Below, piece by piece: positions 1,883 to 48,755 of a stretch of 52,476 bases of DNA; within the stretch, counting starts at the first letter, position 1; each line of letters opens with the position of its first letter. The DNA comes from Candidatus Woesearchaeota archaeon. Its GTDB lineage: Archaea; Nanobdellota; Nanobdellia; SCGC-AAA011-G17; JACPIM01. The stretch covers positions 1 to 52,476 of the forward strand of contig CAYWEX010000001.1 of the NCBI GenBank assembly GCA_964457785.1, read 5' to 3'. Under the pieces are notes generated by a model. It was given only the letters and a program-made list of their open reading frames with translations, was not told the DNA's origin and made no database searches. Both the position numbers and the translations under genes were made by a program.

Positions 1883-2995
1883 TTAATTAATAAATTCTAT
1901 ACCTAATTCAGACTCTATTTCTTTTCTTAATTTCTGGCTTAATTTCTTTTTAGGACCAAAAATTTGAGGAGAATTTACACCAGTTACTATCAACATAGTT
2001 CTTATTGTATTTGACAAATCTTCTGAAATTTGGGCTCCCCAGATTATTCTTGCATTTGGATCAAGCCTGGATGAAATAGTTTCAACAACTTTTCTTGCTT
2101 CTTCCAAAGTCATGTCTGGACCGCCTGCAACATTAATCAAAGCACCAACAGCACCATCAATACTTACATCTAATAAGGGATTATTAATTGCTTTCTCAAC
2201 TGCTTCAACTGCTCTGTTTTCAGAATCACTTTCACCAACACCAATTACAGCAACTCCTCCTTTACCCATAACTGTTCTTATATCAGCAAAATCTAGATTT
2301 ACTAAGCCTGTTTTTGTAACTAATTCTGCTATGCCTTTGACTGAATTAGTCAAAATTTCATCTGCTACTTTGAAAGCTGTATGCAAAGGCAAGTCAGGAG
2401 CTAGATCTAATAATTTATCATTTGGAATTACAATTAATGTATCTGCCAAAGATTCTAATTTTTCCAAACCATACAAGGCATTATCATATCTTCTCTGGCC
2501 TTCCATTACAAATGGCATTGTAACTATAGCTACTGTTAAGGCCCCCATTTTTCTTGCTACTTCTGCAACTACAGGAGCTGAACCAGAACCAGTTCCACCA
2601 CCCAAACCACAAGTAATGAAAACCATATCTGCACCTTGAATTTTTTCCTTTATTTCATGTTCAGTTTCGCGAGCAGCATCTTCACCGACTTGAGGAATAC
2701 TGCCAGCTCCCAAGCCGTGAGTTAATGTTTTTCCAATAAGAATTTTAGTGTCAGCATTTGTGTATAATAAGTCCTGGGCATCTGTATTAATTGCAATTGT
2801 TTCTATACCAGTTATACCAACTTCAGAGATTCTATTAATGGTGTTATTTCCACCCCCACCGCAACCTACAACTTTAATTTTAGCTTTTTGCTTAGAGATT
2901 AATTCTTCTAGTTCAGCATCTAAAGGATTGGGATTGCGAGGCATAGAAGACTTAATGAAACCTCTTTCTTTGACATTATTTATCATACTATCCAT
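1883..2995 (-). CDS. ftsZ: Cell division protein FtsZ
   Basis: GCGGGGNN, GLGGGTGSG and NLDFADIRTVM motifs. Confidence 0.98.
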   Translation of the reverse strand: MDSMINNVKERGFIKSSMPRNPNPLDAELEELISKQKAKIKVVGCGGGGNNTINRISEVGITGIETIAINTDAQDLLYTNADTKILIGKTLTHGLGAGSIPQVGEDAARETEHEIKEKIQGADMVFITCGLGGGTGSGSAPVVAEVARKMGALTVAIVTMPFVMEGQRRYDNALYGLEKLESLADTLIVIPNDKLLDLAPDLPLHTAFKVADEILTNSVKGIAELVTKTGLVNLDFADIRTVMGKGGVAVIGVGESDSENRAVEAVEKAINNPLLDVSIDGAVGALINVAGGPDMTLEEARKVVETISSRLDPNARIIWGAQISEDLSNTIRTMLIVTGVNSPQIFGPKKKLSQKLRKEIESELGIEFIN

Positions 2996-3039
2996 TAAAT
3001 GGCTATAGTGAGAAGGTAGTATATAACTTTTTCTGAACT

Positions 3040-11929: not shown

Positions 11930-12691
11930 ATGAGAAATAAACACTTAAGAATATTTGAATACAGCATCTTTTTTTTAATAGGGTTTTTATTGGCAGTATT
12001 TTTATTTTCTGGAACTAGTTTTCAAGGACAAGTTATCAGAGAAACTGAGGTTATAGAAAAAGAAACTCTAGTTACTAAAGCTTCTGCTAATATTGTTGCT
12101 GTATCTTCTTTAGATAACTCAGGCATCTTAGGCAAAGTTAATGTTGAAATAACAGAAGGTGATGGAAAGATATTAGTTAATACAAATCCTTTTTTAGAGC
12201 CAGATTTACAACAAAGCGCAAATATTGCTGCTATAGTTGCGCAAAAAATAGCAATTGAAAAACTAAAAAACAGGAATTTGATTTATACATTTGATGTAGG
12301 AGAAGCTAATGTATTAGGAGGACATTCTGCTGGGGCAGCAATGACTATGGCAACATTATCTGCTTTACTTGTAAAAGAATTAAAAGATGATGTTGTTATT
12401 ACAGGAACTATTAGAGAAGATGGAGTCATTGGTCCTGTTGGCGGATTAATAGAAAAAGCACAAGCAGCTTCTGAACATAATAAAAAAATATTTTTAATAC
12501 CAAAGGGACAAAGCGAGCTAACTTATTATGAAAAAGAAGTTAGAAAGAAGAAAGTTGATAGTGGAACTGTTACTAGAACTTATTATATTCCCAAAACTTT
12601 TGATTTAGTTGCATATGGAAGAGATGAATTAGGAATTGAAGTTAAAGAAGTGGAAACTATTTATGATGTTATGGATTTAATGCTCAAGTAA
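11930..12691 (+). CDS. Membrane-anchored Lon-type (S16) protease domain protein
   Basis: N-terminal TM; GHSAGAAM, TGTI and GPVGGLIEK (Ser-Lys dyad); no AAA+ domain. Confidence 0.9.
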   Translation: MRNKHLRIFEYSIFFLIGFLLAVFLFSGTSFQGQVIRETEVIEKETLVTKASANIVAVSSLDNSGILGKVNVEITEGDGKILVNTNPFLEPDLQQSANIAAIVAQKIAIEKLKNRNLIYTFDVGEANVLGGHSAGAAMTMATLSALLVKELKDDVVITGTIREDGVIGPVGGLIEKAQAASEHNKKIFLIPKGQSELTYYEKEVRKKKVDSGTVTRTYYIPKTFDLVAYGRDELGIEVKEVETIYDVMDLMLK

Positions 12692-12729
12692 AGCTTTTTT
12701 CTAAAAAGTTTTAGCAAAAAGAAAAAAAG

Positions 12730-12960
12730 ATGAGGAAGAAAATTAATTTTAAATTGAATAAAGGAGAAATATGCTTGGTTTTAGCAGGAACATTAATTGG
12801 TGGAATAATTGGTTATTCTCAGGCTCCATTAATTTATTGCATTAGAGCACCTTGCAACCAAATATATCAAATTCCTTATACAATTTATGGACTTTTAATT
12901 GGCGGAGCTTTAACTTATTTAATTGAAGTAATTCACAATAATTTTAGGCGAAGACCTTAG
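12730..12960 (+). CDS. Small 2-TM membrane protein with a CIRAPC loop
   Basis: Two hydrophobic helices; paralog of the next gene (LIGGIxGY...LTYLIEVI). Confidence 0.75.
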   Translation: MRKKINFKLNKGEICLVLAGTLIGGIIGYSQAPLIYCIRAPCNQIYQIPYTIYGLLIGGALTYLIEVIHNNFRRRP

Positions 12961-13002
12961 TAAAAAGAAATATTTATAATAAAGAGATTGTAAATTCTAA
13001 TT

Positions 13003-13236
13003 ATGTGTTTTAAATTAAGCAAGAAACAAATTATAATTTTAGTTGTGGTTTCTTTGATTGGTGGAATTTTGGGTTATTTGCATGCCTCATTTTTCTCGGG
13101 AGTTCAATGCTTAATTAAAGGAGAACAAACTATATGTCCATCAGATCCGCGATTAATTCTTATGTTTTTTTCCTTTCTAGTTTTTGGAGTTTTAACTTAT
13201 TTAATTGAAGTAATTTATAACTATCTTAGAAAATAA
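13003..13236 (+). CDS. Small 2-TM membrane protein (paralog of 12730-12960)
   Basis: LIGGILGY...LTYLIEVI; two loop cysteines. Confidence 0.75.
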   Translation: MCFKLSKKQIIILVVVSLIGGILGYLHASFFSGVQCLIKGEQTICPSDPRLILMFFSFLVFGVLTYLIEVIYNYLRK

Positions 13237-13278
13237 ATCTTTTTTCGAAAATCTTCCGGATTTTTCGGAAACTTTTCA

Positions 13279-13362
13279 CCCCTTTATAAATTTCACTGGA
13301 CAAATTCACTGGACATTTCGGGGACCGGCCTAGCGCTTATAAATAAAATCGTCTTATTCTTG
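13279..13362 (-). repeat. 84-bp perfect inverted repeat, right copy
   Basis: Exact reverse complement of 8491-8574; abuts the ATG of the LAGLIDADG gene. Confidence 0.95.
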
Positions 13363-14088
13363 ATGATGAAATATAAAACTATTAATAAAGAAGAACTGTT
13401 GTCTTATTTTTCTATAAATCAAAAAAATAAATTATTTGAATTAAATCTCTCTAAATTAACAAAACCAATTTTCATAAATTTACCGTTTATTTTAAATGAA
13501 GAAGTTTCTTCTTTAATGGGTTTAATGCCTGATGGTAGTTTAATAAAAGATCTAATGAGAGTATTTTTCACCCAGAAAAAAGATCCGCGAAAAATAGAAC
13601 TCTTTAATGATTTAATAATTAAGATATTTTCAACAAAGATTAAATTATTTAGAAAAGAAAATTCCAAAGGCAAACAAATCTATGTAAATTCAAAAACTTT
13701 GGCTTGGTTTTTGTATTATATCCTTAAACTTCCTAAATCAGATGAACAAATGAGAATACCTGGTTGGATTTTTGAATCACCAAAAAGTGTAAAAATAGCT
13801 TATCTTCAACAAGCATTCGATATGGAAGGTACAATTTTAAAAAAACTTACTGAAATAAGATTTGTAAGTGGAGATGAACTTTTCGCTAAAGACATATATA
13901 GTTTATTAAATAGTTTAGAAATAAAATCTCATCTTACATATGCCCCAAGATTTAAACAGCCTAACGGGCAATACAGAGTTTCTATTTACAGAAGAGAAAA
14001 TTTTGAGAAATTTAAGGAAATAAGTTTTAGAATTCCATTCTTAGAAAATAGATTTAATTTATTATTACAAAAATACGAAATTTTATAA
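13363..14088 (+). CDS. Free-standing LAGLIDADG-family endonuclease-like protein
   Basis: Two motifs (LMGLMPDGSL and YLQQAFDMEGTI) plus IPGWIF; no intein splicing termini. Confidence 0.85.
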   Translation: MMKYKTINKEELLSYFSINQKNKLFELNLSKLTKPIFINLPFILNEEVSSLMGLMPDGSLIKDLMRVFFTQKKDPRKIELFNDLIIKIFSTKIKLFRKENSKGKQIYVNSKTLAWFLYYILKLPKSDEQMRIPGWIFESPKSVKIAYLQQAFDMEGTILKKLTEIRFVSGDELFAKDIYSLLNSLEIKSHLTYAPRFKQPNGQYRVSIYRRENFEKFKEISFRIPFLENRFNLLLQKYEIL

Positions 14089-14126
14089 ATAGCTTTTTTG
14101 ACAGATTTAATACGTTCCTGGATCAT

Positions 14127-14283
14127 AGCGGAGTTTTGTTAAGAACTATCTTAAAAAATCGCAATAGGACAGCCAGGAGCGCATTAAGTGTTTATGCACT
14201 GAATGTCCGTCGGGCTCATAACCCGAAGGTCGGTGGAGGTAGGTTTGGATATCTATCGCCGAATTCAAATCCACTCTCCGCTA
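14127..14283 (+). tRNA. Initiator tRNA-Met(CAT) with three non-canonical introns (14134-14164, 14180-14203, 14237-14263)
   Basis: Removing the three inserts gives AGCGGAG TA GGAC AGCCAGGAGT GTCC G TCGGG CTCATAA CCCGA AGGTC GGTGG TTCAAAT CCACT CTCCGCT A. It has A1-U72 and three G-C pairs in the anticodon stem, and each junction forms a BHB-like motif. Confidence 0.93.
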
Positions 14284-15276
14284 TTTTATACTTATCTCAT
14301 TCCCTTCAATTTTAAATTTAACATCCAAGAATTTCTCAATAACTTCAATATTTGATTTAATGTGGTCTGTAATTTTGCTTGAGATAATTTTGCCTTTTTT
14401 AGCCAAAGCCATATAGATCAATAATTGGTCAGCTGTAAAATAATCGACTGTAGAATTGGCATTGATTTCTTTTGATAAATTAGCAGCACAATCTTTCCCT
14501 ATATCTTCTGCTTTAACTCCTAATTTTCCTAATGTTGTATAACCTATAAGAGTTTTTTGATATTTAGCAAAGCCAGAAATAAAACATCCAGGATCTAAGG
14601 AAGCTACATATTGCTTATTAGTTTCCAAATCATGATCAATAATGCTTGCAAATCCATCTAATAATCTTTGAGCTACTTCCTGGTCTCTCAAGCTTTGAGA
14701 AGAAACAGCAAAAGCATAAATTTTTTCTAAGTTACCTCTTTCAATTAAGTTTAATGGCTTTAATTTTTTACAAGGCATAATTTTAGCAATAATTTGTCCA
14801 CCACCTTTAGGAACAAACCCTTCTTTTTCGACATTTACTGTTACTTCTATGTTCATTAATCTTAATAATTGCAAAAAAACTGCTTTTATGTAAAAGGCAG
14901 GTGGGGCCAGCGGGTTTGAAGTACCGCCACTTATTTTTAAAGTTGATTTTTCTTTAGCAAATAATAAAGAAGGAAGTAATGTCTGCAGAACTAAAGTTGT
15001 TGAACCAGCAGTACCAATATCAAATGCATAATTTCCAGGAATAACTTTCGACGGCTTAAATTCCAATTCTTTTGAATGAATAGCATTTCCCTTAACCTGA
15101 GCACTACAAATTTTTGCTGCAGCATTAACAGCTGTCAAATGCTGATTTTGCAAACCTGGTTTTTCTCTTTTACCTCTTATATTATTAAATTTGAATGGTT
15201 TTTGGGTTAAAACTGACAAACTTAAGCTTGTACGAAGAGTTTGCCCTCCGGAATTTGCGCCATCTATCACTATCAT
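14281..15276 (-). CDS. rtcA: RNA 3'-terminal phosphate cyclase
   Basis: GGQTLRT, REKPGLQNQH, GTAGS, GGT, PKGGG, ADQL and TDH motifs. Confidence 0.95.
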   Translation of the reverse strand: MIVIDGANSGGQTLRTSLSLSVLTQKPFKFNNIRGKREKPGLQNQHLTAVNAAAKICSAQVKGNAIHSKELEFKPSKVIPGNYAFDIGTAGSTTLVLQTLLPSLLFAKEKSTLKISGGTSNPLAPPAFYIKAVFLQLLRLMNIEVTVNVEKEGFVPKGGGQIIAKIMPCKKLKPLNLIERGNLEKIYAFAVSSQSLRDQEVAQRLLDGFASIIDHDLETNKQYVASLDPGCFISGFAKYQKTLIGYTTLGKLGVKAEDIGKDCAANLSKEINANSTVDYFTADQLLIYMALAKKGKIISSKITDHIKSNIEVIEKFLDVKFKIEGNEISIK

Positions 15277-15310
15277 ATATATACCAAAACACTCCTATTT
15301 AAAAAATGAT

Positions 15311-16222
15311 TTAATTTCCTATGTATTTTGAGAATAGGCTTTTTGCTTCTTTTTCGTCTTTAGCCTTGATTAAAGCCTTATTCTTGAATAAAGATATAGG
15401 CAGATTTTCCTTTTTTAACCTATTATTTACTTTGTCAAAATCAAAATTTCCCTTGATTAAGTAATTCGAACTGCCGCAGAATTTAACTATTTCTTTTGAT
15501 TTTTTACCTTCCAAGTAATCAAATATTTGGTTAGAACAAACAGAACAATCTCTGCTTTTATTTATTTTTATTTTAATTAATTCATTAATTTTTAAATTAA
15601 AGTAAATTAAATCTTTTTCATGTTCCTGATTTAACAATATCTTAATAGCTTCATTAACTTGCAGGCTTGAGATTAAATGTGTAGTTGAATTTAGAACACC
15701 AAAAGTTTCACAAGTTTCCAAACCTTGAATTTCCTTGAAAATGCAATTAAAGCAAGTTTCTTCAGGAATTATATTAAACAAATATCCTTCATTTCCAATT
15801 GCTGAGGCATAAATAAAAGGAATTTTATTTTTTACTGAAAATTCATTTATTAAAAATCTAGTTTCTAAATTGTCAGTGCAATCTAAAATTAAATCAGATT
15901 TAAATAAGTTAATATTTTCATTATCTAAATTGTCAAAATAAGATATGATTTCTGTTTCTGTATTTAGTTTATTTAATTTTTCTTTTATTACTCTGGCTTT
16001 GCTTTTTCCAACATCTTCTTCTGTATACAAAGATTGTCTCTGCAAATTATGCAGTTCTATACTATCTCTGTCAATTAAAATTAATTTTTTTATTCCTGCT
16101 CTTGCTAATAATTCTGCTGAAACAGAACCAACAGCACCAAGACCAATTATTGAAACTGTTTTTCTTGATAATAATTTTTGATTGGCTTTTCCTAACAATC
16201 TTTCCTGCCTTATATATCGCAT
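15311..16222 (-). CDS. ThiF/MoeB/UbaA (E1-like) adenylyltransferase
   Basis: RYIRQ, GLGAVG, DRD..ELHNLQRQ, DCTDN and CxxC pairs. Confidence 0.93.
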   Translation of the reverse strand: MRYIRQERLLGKANQKLLSRKTVSIIGLGAVGSVSAELLARAGIKKLILIDRDSIELHNLQRQSLYTEEDVGKSKARVIKEKLNKLNTETEIISYFDNLDNENINLFKSDLILDCTDNLETRFLINEFSVKNKIPFIYASAIGNEGYLFNIIPEETCFNCIFKEIQGLETCETFGVLNSTTHLISSLQVNEAIKILLNQEHEKDLIYFNLKINELIKIKINKSRDCSVCSNQIFDYLEGKKSKEIVKFCGSSNYLIKGNFDFDKVNNRLKKENLPISLFKNKALIKAKDEKEAKSLFSKYIGN

Positions 16223-16478
16223 AGAAAATATATTTTCCAGTGTATTTTTAAACTTTTTGAGAAGGCTTTTTTCTAAAAAGCTTAAGCAAAAAACTGAGAA
16301 TTTATTTTGATAGTATAAGGCGAGAGAAGGTAATTTTTAGAAAAGTATAATTCTACTTCAAAGTTACTAAGTAATCTTTATATAATATCTTAATTTAATA
16401 AAAATATTTCATTATATCTGATTAAAAAGATAATTATTTATATATAAAAATCATTTTAAGAGAAGGGGTGATAATAGA

Positions 16479-19400
16479 GTGAGTTTAACTGAGAAGAATC
16501 TTTCTGAAATAGAGTTTGAAAAAATAGCTAATGATGATTTAGAATTAATGTTCAATCACAAAAGCAAAGTCACCAAGATTGTTCCTCCAGATTATATCAA
16601 AAACTATAAACAGTTATTGTTCTATTTAAGAGATTTATTAAACCAAGGAAAACTGCCAATGCATCCAAGCAACAACTACTTGGGTGAGAATAAATTAGCA
16701 CATGACATTTACAAAAGCAAATATTATCTAAAAAATTTAAAAGATGAATTAATAGAGAAAAAACCCGAGGAAACTTTTGCACGACTGGCTGCTTTCTTGG
16801 CTGCTGTTGAAACAACAAAAGAAAAACAGGAAGAATGTGCAGTAAAATTCTATAAAGATTTAGTTGAAGGACATTTCCTGCCTGGTGGAAGAGTAATAGC
16901 TGGAGCTGGAGATTTATACAGGCTAAAAACTTTAGGAAATTGTTTTGTTTCTATGATTGAAGACGATAATATAGAAAGCATATACAAAGCAGCATATGAA
17001 TGTGCTAGAACCTATTCATATGGCGGTGGAATTGGTGTAGACATGTCAAGCTTAAGACCTAGAGAAGCTTTAGTTCATAATGCAGCAAATCATTCTACAG
17101 GAGCAGTTTCTTTTATGGAAATTTATTCTTTAACTACTGGATTAATTGGACAGAGCGGGAGAAGAGGAGCTTTAATGCTCACTTTAGATGTAAAACATCC
17201 AGACATTTTCCATTTTGTGGATGTAAAAAGAATTCCCAACTGGGTAACAAGACAAATTACAGACCAATGCAAATGGTCTAATTTATTCAATGAAAGACAA
17301 TTGCATGAAATAGAAAGACAAGTTAGAGAGAATACACAAGTAAGATTTGCAAACATAAGCATGAAAGTTACTGATGAATTCATGAGTGCTGTAGAAGAAC
17401 AAACGAAATTTGGAAAAAATAAATTACTTGTCTACAAAAGATTTAAACAAGATGAACCTGAGGAAACAAGACAAGGATATATTCATTACTCATTTGGTAT
17501 TCCTTCAAAAGATTTAGAAAACTATGAATTTTTAGAAAAATTTGATTCTGTTTATGAATTAAATAATTTCTTATTAACTCAAAAAAAAGAAATAAATGAA
17601 GAAGACTTAAAAAATACAAGTTTGAGAAATATTTTTGGAGACTTTATATTAAAGTCAGATAGTTATGATCTAGCAATACATTATTCTGGAGACTTTTTAT
17701 TATATTTTAATTCTGACCAGACAAAAGAAGTAAAGAAATTAGTCAAGGCAAAAGAATTATGGGATAAATTTGTTGCTTCTAATTACAAGACAGCTGAACC
17801 AGGATTAATTTTCTGGAGCAGAATGGTAAAATACAGCCCTTCAAATTACGTTGGAAGACCTATAATAACAACTAATCCCTGCATAACTGGCGATTCTTTA
17901 GTTTCTACTGATAAAGGTTTAGAAAGAATAGAAGATTTAGCTGGAAAAGAAGTTGAGATAGCAACTGACAACAGAGTTCCTATTGAAGTTTTGAACAATA
18001 AAGGCGAATTAATGTTAATGGAACAAAAAGATGGAATTACTTTTAATAGATCCCCCAGAGTCTGGTGTTCTGGAATAAAACCAACTTACAGGCTTAAAAC
18101 TAAAAAAGGCTACGAAATTACAGCAACAGCAGACCACAAAATTATGACTAATAATGGTTTTAAGGAATTATCAAGACTAATAAAAGAAGATAAAATTCTT
18201 ATCCAGAAAGGAGAAGGTAAATTTAATACAAATTACGATCTTAATTTTGATATTAATGTTGAACCTAAAAATGGCCACTTTTATCCATTTAATTTTCCAA
18301 CACAATGGTCTAAAGAATTAGGACAAATTTTAGGGTGGACAGTTGGAGACGGATTTGTTGTTGATGATAAATTAGAAATGGTATTTGCTAATGATGAATT
18401 AGAAATTATGAATAAATTCAAAATATTTATGGACAAAGTTTATGGTGAGAGAGAAGGATCAATAGTAGACAAAGATTCAACAAAGCATTTACTTTATAAC
18501 AGCATTTTTGTAGCTGAATTTATGAGAAAATTGGGAATAAAAAGCGTAGATGCTGAATTTAAAACTGTTCCGCAAGCTATTTTTACTGCACCAAAAGAAG
18601 CAGTTATTGGTTTTTTACAAGGATTATTTTCTGCAGACGGCACCATAGGTATAGATGAAGAAAAAGGAAATCGATATATAAGATTAACTTCAAAATCTAA
18701 AGAATTATTAAAGGAGGTTCAAAAGATTTTATTAAATCTTGGAATGATTTCAACAATATATGATAGAGAAAGAGATCCAGAAGTAAAATTCTTTTATTTT
18801 ACAGCTAAAGGGGAATATAGAGAATATGAATGTGACGGCAAATTATGGGAATTACAATTAAGCAAGAAAAGTGCACGAAAGTTTTTAGAAGAAATAGGCT
18901 TTTTAGGAACTAAACATCAAGAAAAAACTAAAATATTTTTAAGCCACAGGCAATACAAAGACAATTTTTTTGACAATTTAGTTTCAATAGAGTATGATGG
19001 AGTAAGAGAAATTTACGATTTATCTGAACCGCATACACATTCTTTTATTGCAAACGGAATTGTAATCCATAATTGCGGCGAAATAAATTTAGAGGATGGC
19101 GGGGCGTGCAATTTATCAGCGATGAATTTGTCAAGATTTGTTGATGAAGGTTATACTGAGAATGCCAAAATTAACTGGGAATTATTAAAAGAAAGTGTTA
19201 CTAATGTTACAAGATTTTTAGACAATACAATTACATGGAATATGTTCATGAATCCTTTGGAGAAACAAAGAATAGCAACTTCTGAAACAAGAAGACTTGG
19301 ACTGGGAGTGATGGGGATTGCTGATATGCTAAATCAATTGAGTATTGGATATGATTCTGATGAAGGTTTAGAATTAATTGGAAAGGTAATGAAATTTATT

Positions 19401-20330
19401 GCAAATACTGCTTACAAAGCTTCATCTTATTTAGCTTTGGAAAAGGAGCCATCTCCTTTATTTAATTATGAAGCTTATTCAAAATGCCCATTTTTCCAAG
19501 AATCTATTGACCAAGATGTAAAAGATTTAATAAGAAAAAATGGATTGAGAAATATTGCTATCTTAACTATTGCTCCAACAGGAACAATATCGAATGTTGT
19601 TCTAGGATTTAAAAATAAAGAAAAATATTATGTTGGTGTAAGTTCTGGAGTAGAACCTATTTTTGCTTTATATTATCAAAGAAGATCTGAGACTTTAAAC
19701 AAAGAAGAAAGCTCTAAATTTTATAATGTATTTCATCCAACTATACAGGCTTATTTAGATTTAAAAAACTTGAATGAAAAAGCACAAGATATAACTAATT
19801 TAGAAGAATTAAGGAAAGTATTGCCTACAAGTTTTTTTAGAACATCTCATTTTATCAAAGCAGATAAAAGAGTTGAAATTCAGGGAATCTGCCAGAAATA
19901 TATTGACCACAGCATTTCAAGCACAGTGAATTTGCCTGAAAGCATCAAACCTGATATGGTTTCAGATATTTATTTTGATGCATGGAAAAAAGGATTAAAA
20001 GGAATTACAATATACAGAGATGGATCCAGATATCCTATTTTAAGTGTTGCCCAAGAACAAACAGAATTCCAAGAAATTAAGAAGAAAACATTTAAAGTTT
20101 ATACTAACAGCGAAGAGCTTTTATTAAAAGGAGATGAGGTATTTGTTTTAGAAAATGGAACATTAAGCACTGCTTACCATTCTATAAAAGAAAATCATCC
20201 AGTAAAAATAGAAGAAATTAATTTTGATACTGGAGAAACTGTTATTTCTAATTTTATAGAAAAAAGTACAGATAAAAATACCTGTGAAATTAAAATAGAA
20301 GACGGCAAAGTAATAAAGACTTGTGAATAA
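16479..20330 (+). CDS. nrdJ: Class II (AdoCbl-dependent) ribonucleotide reductase with intein; no ATP cone
   Basis: PGGR, LGNCFV, GRRGA, NP[intein]CGE, ACNL, APTGT, KGITIYRDGSR and a C-terminal Cys pair; GGGGTGA RBS. Confidence 0.95.
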   Translation: MSLTEKNLSEIEFEKIANDDLELMFNHKSKVTKIVPPDYIKNYKQLLFYLRDLLNQGKLPMHPSNNYLGENKLAHDIYKSKYYLKNLKDELIEKKPEETFARLAAFLAAVETTKEKQEECAVKFYKDLVEGHFLPGGRVIAGAGDLYRLKTLGNCFVSMIEDDNIESIYKAAYECARTYSYGGGIGVDMSSLRPREALVHNAANHSTGAVSFMEIYSLTTGLIGQSGRRGALMLTLDVKHPDIFHFVDVKRIPNWVTRQITDQCKWSNLFNERQLHEIERQVRENTQVRFANISMKVTDEFMSAVEEQTKFGKNKLLVYKRFKQDEPEETRQGYIHYSFGIPSKDLENYEFLEKFDSVYELNNFLLTQKKEINEEDLKNTSLRNIFGDFILKSDSYDLAIHYSGDFLLYFNSDQTKEVKKLVKAKELWDKFVASNYKTAEPGLIFWSRMVKYSPSNYVGRPIITTNPCITGDSLVSTDKGLERIEDLAGKEVEIATDNRVPIEVLNNKGELMLMEQKDGITFNRSPRVWCSGIKPTYRLKTKKGYEITATADHKIMTNNGFKELSRLIKEDKILIQKGEGKFNTNYDLNFDINVEPKNGHFYPFNFPTQWSKELGQILGWTVGDGFVVDDKLEMVFANDELEIMNKFKIFMDKVYGEREGSIVDKDSTKHLLYNSIFVAEFMRKLGIKSVDAEFKTVPQAIFTAPKEAVIGFLQGLFSADGTIGIDEEKGNRYIRLTSKSKELLKEVQKILLNLGMISTIYDRERDPEVKFFYFTAKGEYREYECDGKLWELQLSKKSARKFLEEIGFLGTKHQEKTKIFLSHRQYKDNFFDNLVSIEYDGVREIYDLSEPHTHSFIANGIVIHNCGEINLEDGGACNLSAMNLSRFVDEGYTENAKINWELLKESVTNVTRFLDNTITWNMFMNPLEKQRIATSETRRLGLGVMGIADMLNQLSIGYDSDEGLELIGKVMKFIANTAYKASSYLALEKEPSPLFNYEAYSKCPFFQESIDQDVKDLIRKNGLRNIAILTIAPTGTISNVVLGFKNKEKYYVGVSSGVEPIFALYYQRRSETLNKEESSKFYNVFHPTIQAYLDLKNLNEKAQDITNLEELRKVLPTSFFRTSHFIKADKRVEIQGICQKYIDHSISSTVNLPESIKPDMVSDIYFDAWKKGLKGITIYRDGSRYPILSVAQEQTEFQEIKKKTFKVYTNSEELLLKGDEVFVLENGTLSTAYHSIKENHPVKIEEINFDTGETVISNFIEKSTDKNTCEIKIEDGKVIKTCE
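17880..19073 (+). mobile_element. Intein with LAGLIDADG homing endonuclease (398 aa) at the NP|CGE active site
   Basis: Starts CITGDSLV; block B TADHKI; GWTVGDG and GLFSADG motifs; ends IVIHN before the extein Cys. Confidence 0.95.
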
Positions 20331-37121: not shown

Positions 37122-37220
37122 GCCTCCGTAGCTTAGTAGCTATAGCGGCGGTTTTGTAAATTTTGAATATTCAAAATCCAAATGAACCGCAGGTCAAGGG
37201 TGCAACTCCCTTCGGAGGCT
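37122..37220 (+). tRNA. tRNA-Thr(TGT) with a canonical 37/38 intron (37159-37184)
   Basis: GCCTCCG/CGGAGGC acceptor stem, GCGGT/ACCGC anticodon stem, and a BHB with a TTTG/CAAA helix. Confidence 0.92.
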
Positions 37221-48205: not shown

Positions 48206-48658
48206 ATGCCAATATACGCTTTGAGAACAACAGCAAACAGGGAAGACCAAGTTTTGGATTTTGTAGCCAGTAATGTGCAAAAAAAAGGGCTTAATGTTTT
48301 TTGTGTTATCAGACCTCATGGATTAAGAGGATATATATTTATTGAAGGAGAAAACAGAGAAATTGCAGAAGAAAGCTTCCATGGAGTTCCTTATGCACGA
48401 GGATTATTACCAAATGAAATACAATATCCTGAAATTGAAAAAATGTTAGAGCAAGTTAAAACTGTTGTTAATATTCAAAAGAATGATGTTGTTGAAATTA
48501 TCTCAGGACCTTTTGCAAGAGAAAAAGCAAAAGTTACAAGAATTAATCAGCAGAAAGAAGAAGTAGTAGTTGAATTATTAGAAGCTGCTGTTCCGATCCC
48601 TATAACTGTAAAATTAGACTCTGTTAAAGTTATAAGAAGAGACGATAAAGACGAGTGA
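48206..48658 (+). CDS. spt5: Transcription elongation factor Spt5/NusG
   Basis: NGN domain (GYIFIE) and KOW domain (VEIISGPF). Confidence 0.96.
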   Translation: MPIYALRTTANREDQVLDFVASNVQKKGLNVFCVIRPHGLRGYIFIEGENREIAEESFHGVPYARGLLPNEIQYPEIEKMLEQVKTVVNIQKNDVVEIISGPFAREKAKVTRINQQKEEVVVELLEAAVPIPITVKLDSVKVIRRDDKDE

Positions 48659-48755
48659 GCCTTTTTAGAAAAAAGCTTTTACGGAAAAATTAGAACCAAG
48701 GTTCTTATCAAATCCTAAAGAAATAATTTAGTGAAAATAAAAATGAGGAAATTAA

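Follow-up and report, generated by a model that had tools for sequence, protein, structure and literature searches.

Initiator tRNA-Met gene with four exons and three bulge-helix-bulge-type introns in a Woesearchaeota archaeon: a sequence analysis with its orthologues

Introduction

Can an essential tRNA gene be divided into four short pieces, escape standard gene finders and still yield a regular tRNA? This question is raised by positions 14127 to 14283 on the forward strand of a 52,476 nt stretch of DNA from a Candidatus Woesearchaeota archaeon. The whole of this stretch is referred to here as the window. It belongs to a genome assembly (G000) of 802 kb in 19 contigs that is 86% complete, the DNA of which is present in groundwater metagenome runs. 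A first-pass annotation made from the sequence letters read the region as an initiator tRNA-Met (iMet) gene, interrupted by three introns that each have bulge-helix-bulge (BHB) geometry. The analysis presented here makes it very likely that the region is a functional iMet gene with four exons and three BHB-type introns. This one essential gene has been followed through 240 genomes of one order, where it reaches seven introns.

Exons, introns and the spliced product

The gene (14127–14283, +) is made up of four exons of 7, 15, 33 and 20 nt and three inserts of 31, 24 and 27 nt. Exon 1 (14127–14133) is the 5' strand of the acceptor stem, tRNA positions 1–7. Exon 2 (14165–14179) carries positions 8–20a and exon 3 (14204–14236) positions 21–53, including an uninterrupted anticodon arm with CAT. 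Exon 4 (14264–14283) supplies positions 54–73, and CCA is not encoded. Intron 1 (14134–14164, 31 nt) is at site 7/8, intron 2 (14180–14203, 24 nt) at 20a/21 and intron 3 (14237–14263, 27 nt) at 53/54. The Sprinzl sites were taken from a spliced-alignment script and the exons were joined by coordinate, also in a script. This alignment agrees with the lengths and sites given in the first-pass annotation and with the lack of an insert at 37/38.

The joined exons are 75 nt long and are identified by ARAGORN as tRNA-Met(cat) with a full cloverleaf, having an acceptor stem of 7 bp, a D stem of 4 bp, and anticodon and T stems of 5 bp each. RNAfold produces the same cloverleaf for the spliced product at -30.1 kcal/mol. 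Its 21 stem pairs are all intact, as are the conserved bases of the loops. Archaeal and eukaryal initiator tRNAs are marked by an A1:U72 pair and by a run of three G:C pairs (29-31:39-41) in the anticodon stem. Both marks are present here, the latter as G29-G31:C39-C41 (GGG/CCC), so that removal of the inserts does give the textbook initiator tRNA that had been proposed. The A1:U72 pair is named as an initiator feature in the accessible part of PMC8450103.

In a second sequencing run from the same study, a 281 nt contig spans 14022–14302 with zero differences. The gene is therefore not an artefact of a single assembly.

A promoter-like element is located at 14076–14091 (+), 36–51 nt upstream of the mature 5' end. 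It was recognised by eye as a purine-rich CGAAA resembling a B recognition element (BRE), followed by TTTTATAAATA, a TATA-like box. The same-genus genome G002 has such an element at the same distance, and other relatives have A/T-rich boxes of the TTTAAAAA type approximately 35 nt upstream of iMet. Such a box implies that the iMet precursor carries a 5' leader, though a search of G000 for the archaeal RNase P RNA (RF00373) gave no match at E values up to 0.01. A T run (14284–14287, +) directly follows the discriminator base. Archaeal transcription terminates at oligo-T tracts, and on this basis the run is likely to be the transcription stop.

Visibility to tRNA finders

The unspliced gene is missed by ARAGORN on the window and by ARAGORN in intron mode on the whole genome. 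It is likewise missed by the Rfam tRNA model, both at the gathering threshold and with the E value limit relaxed to 10 for the region or to 1 for the genome. The expectation that standard scanners would overlook the gene is thus borne out for ARAGORN, with and without intron mode, and for the Rfam model. A permissive Rfam search of 13900–14500 gave three matches, one of which is the hairpin of intron 3; all are at chance level (E > 4) and were rejected.

In the 802 kb, 86% complete assembly, a search for another iMet gene gave neither an anticodon arm nor a 3' exon of iMet type beyond those described here. Two other candidate tRNAs with a CAT anticodon are not initiator-like, one being elongator-like or Ile2-like and the other a poorly parsed locus. 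The CAT tRNA at C13:13375-13451 has neither A1:U72 nor the three G:C pairs.

The Rfam tRNA model has 18 matches over threshold in G000, 7 of which are overlong at 99–174 nt. This indicates that interrupted or hidden tRNA genes are the rule in this genome, and a large part of its tRNA set is probably hidden in multi-intron genes. Elsewhere in the window, at 37122–37220, there is a 99 nt tRNA that ARAGORN identifies as tRNA-Thr with a 26 nt intron. An essential gene that is invisible to two standard finders affects genome annotations, as well as statements about missing tRNAs in DPANN archaea.

Pairing across the splice sites

The BHB central helix was defined as exon bases -6 to -3 paired with intron bases n-5 to n-2, with cleavage falling two bases into each 3 nt bulge. 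Intron 1 has the motif GCGG AG|T .. TCGC AA|T and intron 3 the motif CGGT GG|A .. GCCG AA|T, each with 4/4 central pairs. In intron 2 the motif is CAGG AG|C .. ACTG AA|T, with 3/4 central pairs. The helix and bulge strings of the first-pass annotation are matched exactly in the spliced alignment for all three inserts. Exon/intron boundaries set by the mature sequence fit two symmetric 3 nt bulges, from which the cleavage sites are predicted.

Each intron also closes an inner hairpin of its own, which in intron 1 is about 9 bp and in intron 2 is GCAT/ATGC. The TCGC in the 3' part of intron 1 pairs with acceptor positions 2–5. The first insert can be written as 8/9 with the same product, in a register that has 1/4 central pairs as against 4/4 for 7/8. 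This boundary is ambiguous by one base in the window's own copy and unambiguous in 11 of 15 orthologous introns. The 157 nt precursor folds more stably than its shuffles (z = -3.0), and in its minimum free energy (MFE) fold the anticodon arm is retained, together with the hairpins of two introns, 1 and 3.

The gene in related genomes

Orthologues were collected from genomes of the same order by pattern search and then spliced alignment. The sample holds 135 iMet genes from 134 genomes: 114 from a search requiring uninterrupted positions 54–73, 11 from a search aimed at 7/8, and 10 from others. Not included are a further 40 or so listed places and 36 unlisted ones. Three of the 80 fetched regions were rejected as iMet (L107, L127 and L185), and two others (L163 and L169) are cut by contig ends.

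Every one of the 135 spliced products is a 75 nt tRNA-Met(cat) by ARAGORN. Introns interrupt 111 of the 135 genes (82%), 23 of which have four to seven. In full, 24 genes have no intron, 39 have one, 25 have two, 24 have three, 16 have four, four have five, two have six and one has seven. For the 114 gene subset, the corresponding counts from none to five are 21, 32, 24, 21, 15 and 1. Seven introns are found in the iMet of G158 (L090) and in that of G119 (L272). Genes with five, six or seven introns (L090/G158, L272/G119, L093/G014, L103/G218, L088, L089, L099 and L273) have exons as short as 5 nt, and all of them splice in silico to a valid 75 nt tRNA-Met(cat).

There are approximately 15 intron sites in the order. 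These are 4/5, 7/8, 9/10, 12/13, 15/16, 20a/21, 28/29, 29/30, 37/38, 43/44, 44/45, 53/54, 59/60 and 64/65, plus a few singletons. In all, 19 site labels were called, several of which are one-base registration variants; the 42/43 and 16/17 calls are of this kind, arising from the fixed reference, and L001 and L028 were parsed with locus-specific references. The window's three sites recur as a trio in G183, which belongs to a different family. Within the genus, G001 has introns at 20a/21, 37/38 and 44/45, and G002 at 7/8, 28/29, 37/38 and 43/44. Both of these genomes are 96–98% complete and have only interrupted iMet genes, at the syntenic place.

Some features of these orthologues are recorded here in their own right. 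Site 4/5, inside the 5' strand of the acceptor stem, is used in five surveyed genes and in G119 (L125, L132, L144, L159, L177 and L272). The central helix of this intron extends into the 5' leader, with 4/4 pairs in all five surveyed cases. In seven loci (L007, L008, L013, L049, L060, L061 and L101) position 33 of iMet is C (CCCATAA) rather than the near-universal U. D-loop position 21 is U, not the usual A, in iMet throughout the order.

The central helix is conserved across these introns. Among 264 orthologous introns, 198 have 4/4 central pairs and 54 have 3/4, so that 252 have at least 3/4. In register, 193 of 259 introns have 4/4 pairs; with the 3' strand displaced by 1–4 nt this count falls to 0–16 of 259. 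When partners are shuffled among introns, 23 on average and 38 at most reach 4/4, against the 193 observed. The recurrence of register-matched inserts in relatives, together with these slid controls, shows that the inserts are not due to chance. Of the 12 introns with two or fewer pairs, 11 are misplaced by one base owing to the alignment reference, and reach at least three after a 1 nt shift that keeps a valid tRNA.

The pairing is also maintained through sequence change. In a MAFFT alignment of 15 sequences of the 7/8 intron, the central and inner helices (H + h') pair in 87.6% of cells, compared with 32–46% when slid. Both partners have changed in six pairs, and none of 500 shuffles reaches any of five measures; as the sequences are related, this count is to be taken as support and not as a probability. 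Inner-helix pairing is 93% at 7/8, 90% at 20a/21 (17 introns) and 97% at 53/54 (37 distinct introns), with slid values of 14–51%. At 53/54, 16 introns have G-C as central pair 3 and 18 have U-A, a switch through which the T-stem exon base co-varies with its intron partner. The BHB geometry proposed for each of the three inserts is therefore backed by covariation in orthologous introns of the same order.

The intron at site 7/8

A pattern of exon 1, a gap and exon 2 has matches in 19 of the 240 genomes of the order, and the reversed pattern has none. In 15 of these 19 the match is a genuine iMet gene holding a 7/8 intron; the other four (L097, L098, L105 and L106) were rejected as chance matches. 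A sixteenth case in G216 brings the total to 16 of 240 genomes, in six families. G216 has a different acceptor sequence, in which A at exon base 4 faces U in the intron, a compensating A-U pair. A common sequence is recognisable among the 7/8 introns of the order. Judged from sequence and distribution, the 7/8 intron is one old homologous intron that has been kept or lost, and is not peculiar to the window's genome.

The intron had been called unusual. In terms of rarity this stands, as it is present in few genomes of the order; it is not singular, being conserved in six families. No description of a 7/8 intron or of a Woesearchaeota iMet was found in the accessible portions of the literature searched, which does not extend to the older catalogues (Marck and Grosjean 2003; Sugahara 2007, 2008). 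Novelty of the site is not claimed.

Endonuclease and ligase genes

The tRNA splicing endonuclease EndA is encoded by one gene in G000, on contig C13. PF02778 and PF01974 each match once, and the TIGR00324 score of 120.7 bits exceeds the cut-off of 59.6. The protein, approximately 170–196 aa long, has a single N domain and a single C domain. No second EndA subunit was found in G000 at E values up to 10, nor did phmmer against all open reading frames (ORFs) identify a paralogue. An additional PF02778 candidate at 48611–48697 of the window (E 0.024), in a 150 aa ORF followed by TGA that by eye resembles Spt5/NusG, was rejected as a chance match. One EndA gene each is also present in G001, G002, G003, G005 and G008, with open frames of 190–230 aa, and four of these genomes are 96–98% complete. 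The EndA of G000 and of these five relatives is a single-unit, α4-like enzyme.

The closest solved structures are the catalytic subunit of 3iey (E 1e-36) and the 171-residue chain 1a79_A (E 2e-31), which we take to be the M. jannaschii homotetramer. Ahead of the catalytic His, the EndA of G000 has 6 residues fewer than 3iey_A. Five of six family members have an N-terminal tail of 10–30 aa that is rich in Lys and Glu. It is absent in G005, the iMet of which has introns at 7/8 and 29/30.

RtcB is present on contig C3. On contig C13, in locus L014 (G000:C13:19346-22606), endA (-, 1474–2136) is divergent from and overlaps a gene for RNase Z (+, 2036–3004; TIGR02651, 340 bits).

A relaxed-specificity endonuclease had been thought necessary for these introns. 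This expectation is modified, since neither of the classical relaxed types is present and the only EndA gene is of the single-unit α4-like kind, a situation noted for DPANN archaea in the available text of PMC5829648.

Genes on either side

Downstream of the tRNA, and convergent with it, is rtcA (14281–15276, -), encoding RNA 3'-terminal phosphate cyclase (Pfam RTC, E 1.5e-79; NCBIfam TIGR03399, 340 bits against a cut-off of 250). The rtcA stop codon lies on the last 3 nt of the tRNA, which accounts for the 3 nt overlap in the first-pass annotation. In 12 of 60 loci from relatives, belonging to several families, rtcA is in the same ~3 kb locus as iMet (within ~1.5 kb), on either side. EndA itself leaves 2',3'-cyclic phosphate ends and RtcB joins such ends. 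RtcA is not needed where both are present, and a functional link is therefore not required. The suggested connection between RtcA and splicing is weakened accordingly, although the neighbourhood does recur.

Upstream is a free-standing LAGLIDADG-type ORF of 242 aa (13360–14088, +; Pfam LAGLIDADG_3, E 3.6e-10) that ends 38 nt before the tRNA. It contains two LAGLIDADG motifs, in which the acidic residues at D58-G59 and E156-G157 are invariant in 6 homologues. Close homologues, with 40–83% identity, occur in 7 of the 240 genomes of the order (L268, L269, L270, L271, L272 and L273), one copy having stop codons. Every one of them directly adjoins iMet, with no fixed side or orientation. A 7/8 intron is present in five of the seven iMet genes beside a LAGLIDADG gene and absent from two. 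This suggests that the LAGLIDADG gene encodes a free-standing homing endonuclease that is tied to the iMet locus.

Further along the window, at 16479–20330 (+), there is a 1283 aa ORF that by eye is a candidate ribonucleotide reductase with an intein, having an endonuclease-like middle part.

Discussion

A number of observations weigh against the region being a functional iMet gene spliced by EndA. The outer exon-exon helix is missing, by eye, from all three motifs. The outer-helix positions have 0–2 contiguous pairs (A1/A9 for intron 1, C16-G22 and G15-U23 for intron 2, U47/U55 for intron 3), which makes these HBh'-type, or relaxed, motifs and not strict hBHBh'. There is a G.A mismatch in the central helix of intron 2, and the MFE fold of the whole precursor lacks textbook BHBs for introns 1 and 2. 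The sole EndA is α4-like, a type that papers up to 2014 describe, in their available portions, as restricted to strict hBHBh' motifs (PMC3239211 and PMC4090602). In the phmmer alignment against 1a79_A it has a single one-residue gap, hence no inserted specificity loop is evident. The spliced aligner gave a small bonus to BHB pairing. As a control for this, a subset of 193 introns was used in which the boundaries are fixed by the mature sequence alone. Of these, 149 have 4/4 pairs and 29 have 3/4, giving 178 with at least three. None of the three runs listed for 12000–17000 of the window is an RNA run; all are DNA runs from one groundwater study. The lack of a match to RNase P RNA also counts here, but given the completeness of the assembly and the divergence of DPANN RNAs no conclusion is drawn from it. 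Finally, the incompleteness of the assembly leaves room for another iMet copy.

This last point would allow the locus to be a decaying or non-functional copy, with the working initiator tRNA in the unassembled 14% of the genome, which is in 19 contigs here; the imperfect central helix of intron 2 would suit decay. In a decaying gene, however, the spliced product would not be expected to keep all 21 stem pairs and the conserved loop bases, nor would the gene be expected to be flanked by a promoter-like box and a T run. The near-complete genomes G001 and G002 also have only an interrupted iMet, in synteny, and across the order 111 of 135 iMet genes are interrupted yet give perfect products. Decay is therefore highly improbable. 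It is hardly credible that the gene is an assembly or binning artefact, a chimeric contig built from the iMet genes of several organisms. The metagenome does contain several related iMet genes from other Woesearchaeota, and loose contig ends show other versions. Against this, the contig from the separate run is identical over 14022–14302, G183 has the same three sites although it is of another family, and the flanking LAGLIDADG ORF and rtcA are syntenic in G002.

It could also be that at least one insert is not a substrate of EndA, being removed by another activity, that the first insert is really at 8/9, or that the mature tRNA keeps extra bases. The missing outer helices, the α4-like nature of the only EndA and the one-base ambiguity of the window's own 7/8 boundary are in keeping with this. 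Among the orthologues, though, the mature sequence fixes the register of a 4 bp helix and 3 nt bulges in 11 of 15 of the 7/8 introns, the large majority of unambiguous introns (178 of 193) have at least three pairs, and the covariation fits the BHB model. Inserts of 24–31 nt are, in addition, far below the size of a self-splicing intron. A non-EndA explanation for any of the inserts is accordingly considered very unlikely, and a functional gene with three BHB-type introns remains the preferred reading.

Expression of such a gene may be pictured as follows. Transcription would start at the BRE/TATA-like element (14076–14091) and stop at the T run after 14283. At each intron of the precursor, the four exon bases ending two before the 5' splice site would pair with the four intron bases ending two before the 3' site. 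This would form a 4 bp helix flanked by two 3 nt bulges and continued by the intron hairpin, the HBh' form in which the outer exon helix is missing. The single EndA (contig C13) would cut after the second base of each bulge and RtcB (contig C3) would join the exons. The ends would be trimmed, possibly by the RNase Z encoded next to endA, and CCA added. Because the central helix at 7/8 occupies acceptor bases 2–5, the acceptor stem cannot form before intron 1 is removed. It is probable that splicing precedes 5' and 3' end maturation, or alternates with it.

This raises the question of how a single-unit α4-like EndA could act on relaxed motifs at many positions, one of which ties up the acceptor strand. 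The gene in the window offers a short, well-defined substrate with three relaxed sites, for which the cognate enzyme gene has been identified. The same gene with zero to seven introns, and clear homology at each site, is also a favourable system for the reconstruction of intron gains and losses. It bears on how non-canonical tRNA introns arrive and turn over.

Any link between the LAGLIDADG gene and intron spread is speculation. The target of the endonuclease might lie in or next to an uninterrupted iMet, in which case BHB introns, the 7/8 intron first among them, could persist and spread in Woesearchaeota by breaking the target. We think this unlikely, and put it forward tentatively. If true, it would be an archaeal, protein-spliced counterpart of collaborative homing, giving both a route and a selective reason for the arrival of non-canonical tRNA introns. 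It would also help to explain seven introns (eight exons, the shortest of 5 nt) in a lineage with a plain α4-like EndA.

Comparison with known systems

In the collaborative homing of phages, free-standing homing endonuclease genes adjoin intron-bearing targets. The iMet locus resembles this in that an intact, patchily distributed LAGLIDADG gene is always beside the same conserved target, in varying orientation. It differs in that the neighbouring introns are BHB introns and not group I introns, and in that two of the seven neighbouring iMet genes have no 7/8 intron.

The tRNA genes of the Thermoproteales, for example Pyrobaculum, likewise have short introns that are removed by proteins, interrupt non-canonical positions, form relaxed BHB motifs and are often gained and lost, as described in the accessible parts of PMC4033280, PMC4390854 and PMC8450103. 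The Thermoproteales are Crenarchaeota with an (αβ)2 EndA and up to three introns, whereas the window's genome is of the DPANN archaea, has one single-unit EndA and has orthologues that exceed three introns. ARMAN-2 (Candidatus Micrarchaeum) is closer, being a DPANN archaeon with many non-canonical introns, including 53/54 and 59/60, according to the available portion of PMC3239211. Its EndA is of the three-unit ε2 type and approximately 390 aa, in contrast to the approximately 170–196 aa protein with one N and one C domain found here.

The nearest precedent is the work of Kaneta et al. 2018 (PMC5829648), which in its accessible text reports α4-type EndA with an extra loop (L3) in DPANN archaea, including Pacearchaeota and Woesearchaeota, and markedly increased disrupted tRNA genes. 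The same text states that incomplete predicted tRNA sets in DPANN archaea point to undetected disrupted genes, and the gene in the window is an example of these. No individual iMet gene is named in the accessible text. The likeness may not extend to the L3 loop, as no insertion was identified relative to the 171-residue chain of the presumed homotetramer in the phmmer alignment.

Reviews and method papers, in the portions available, give a maximum of three introns per archaeal tRNA gene and tie non-canonical introns to (αβ)2 or ε2 EndA (PMC3239211, PMC4033280, PMC4390854 and PMC8450103). For Asgard archaea, as many as five intervening sequences in a single gene are reported in a preprint of October 2026, and many of these escape tRNAscan-SE. 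The superphylum and the type of EndA are other than those of the present case. An order-wide picture of iMet introns was not found in the accessible portions of the literature searched. The gene in the window thus belongs to a known kind, in an unusually intron-rich lineage. The picture across the order, with 82% of iMet genes interrupted and up to seven introns in one gene, exceeds both the three introns of the reviews, as far as their available text goes, and the five of the Asgard preprint.

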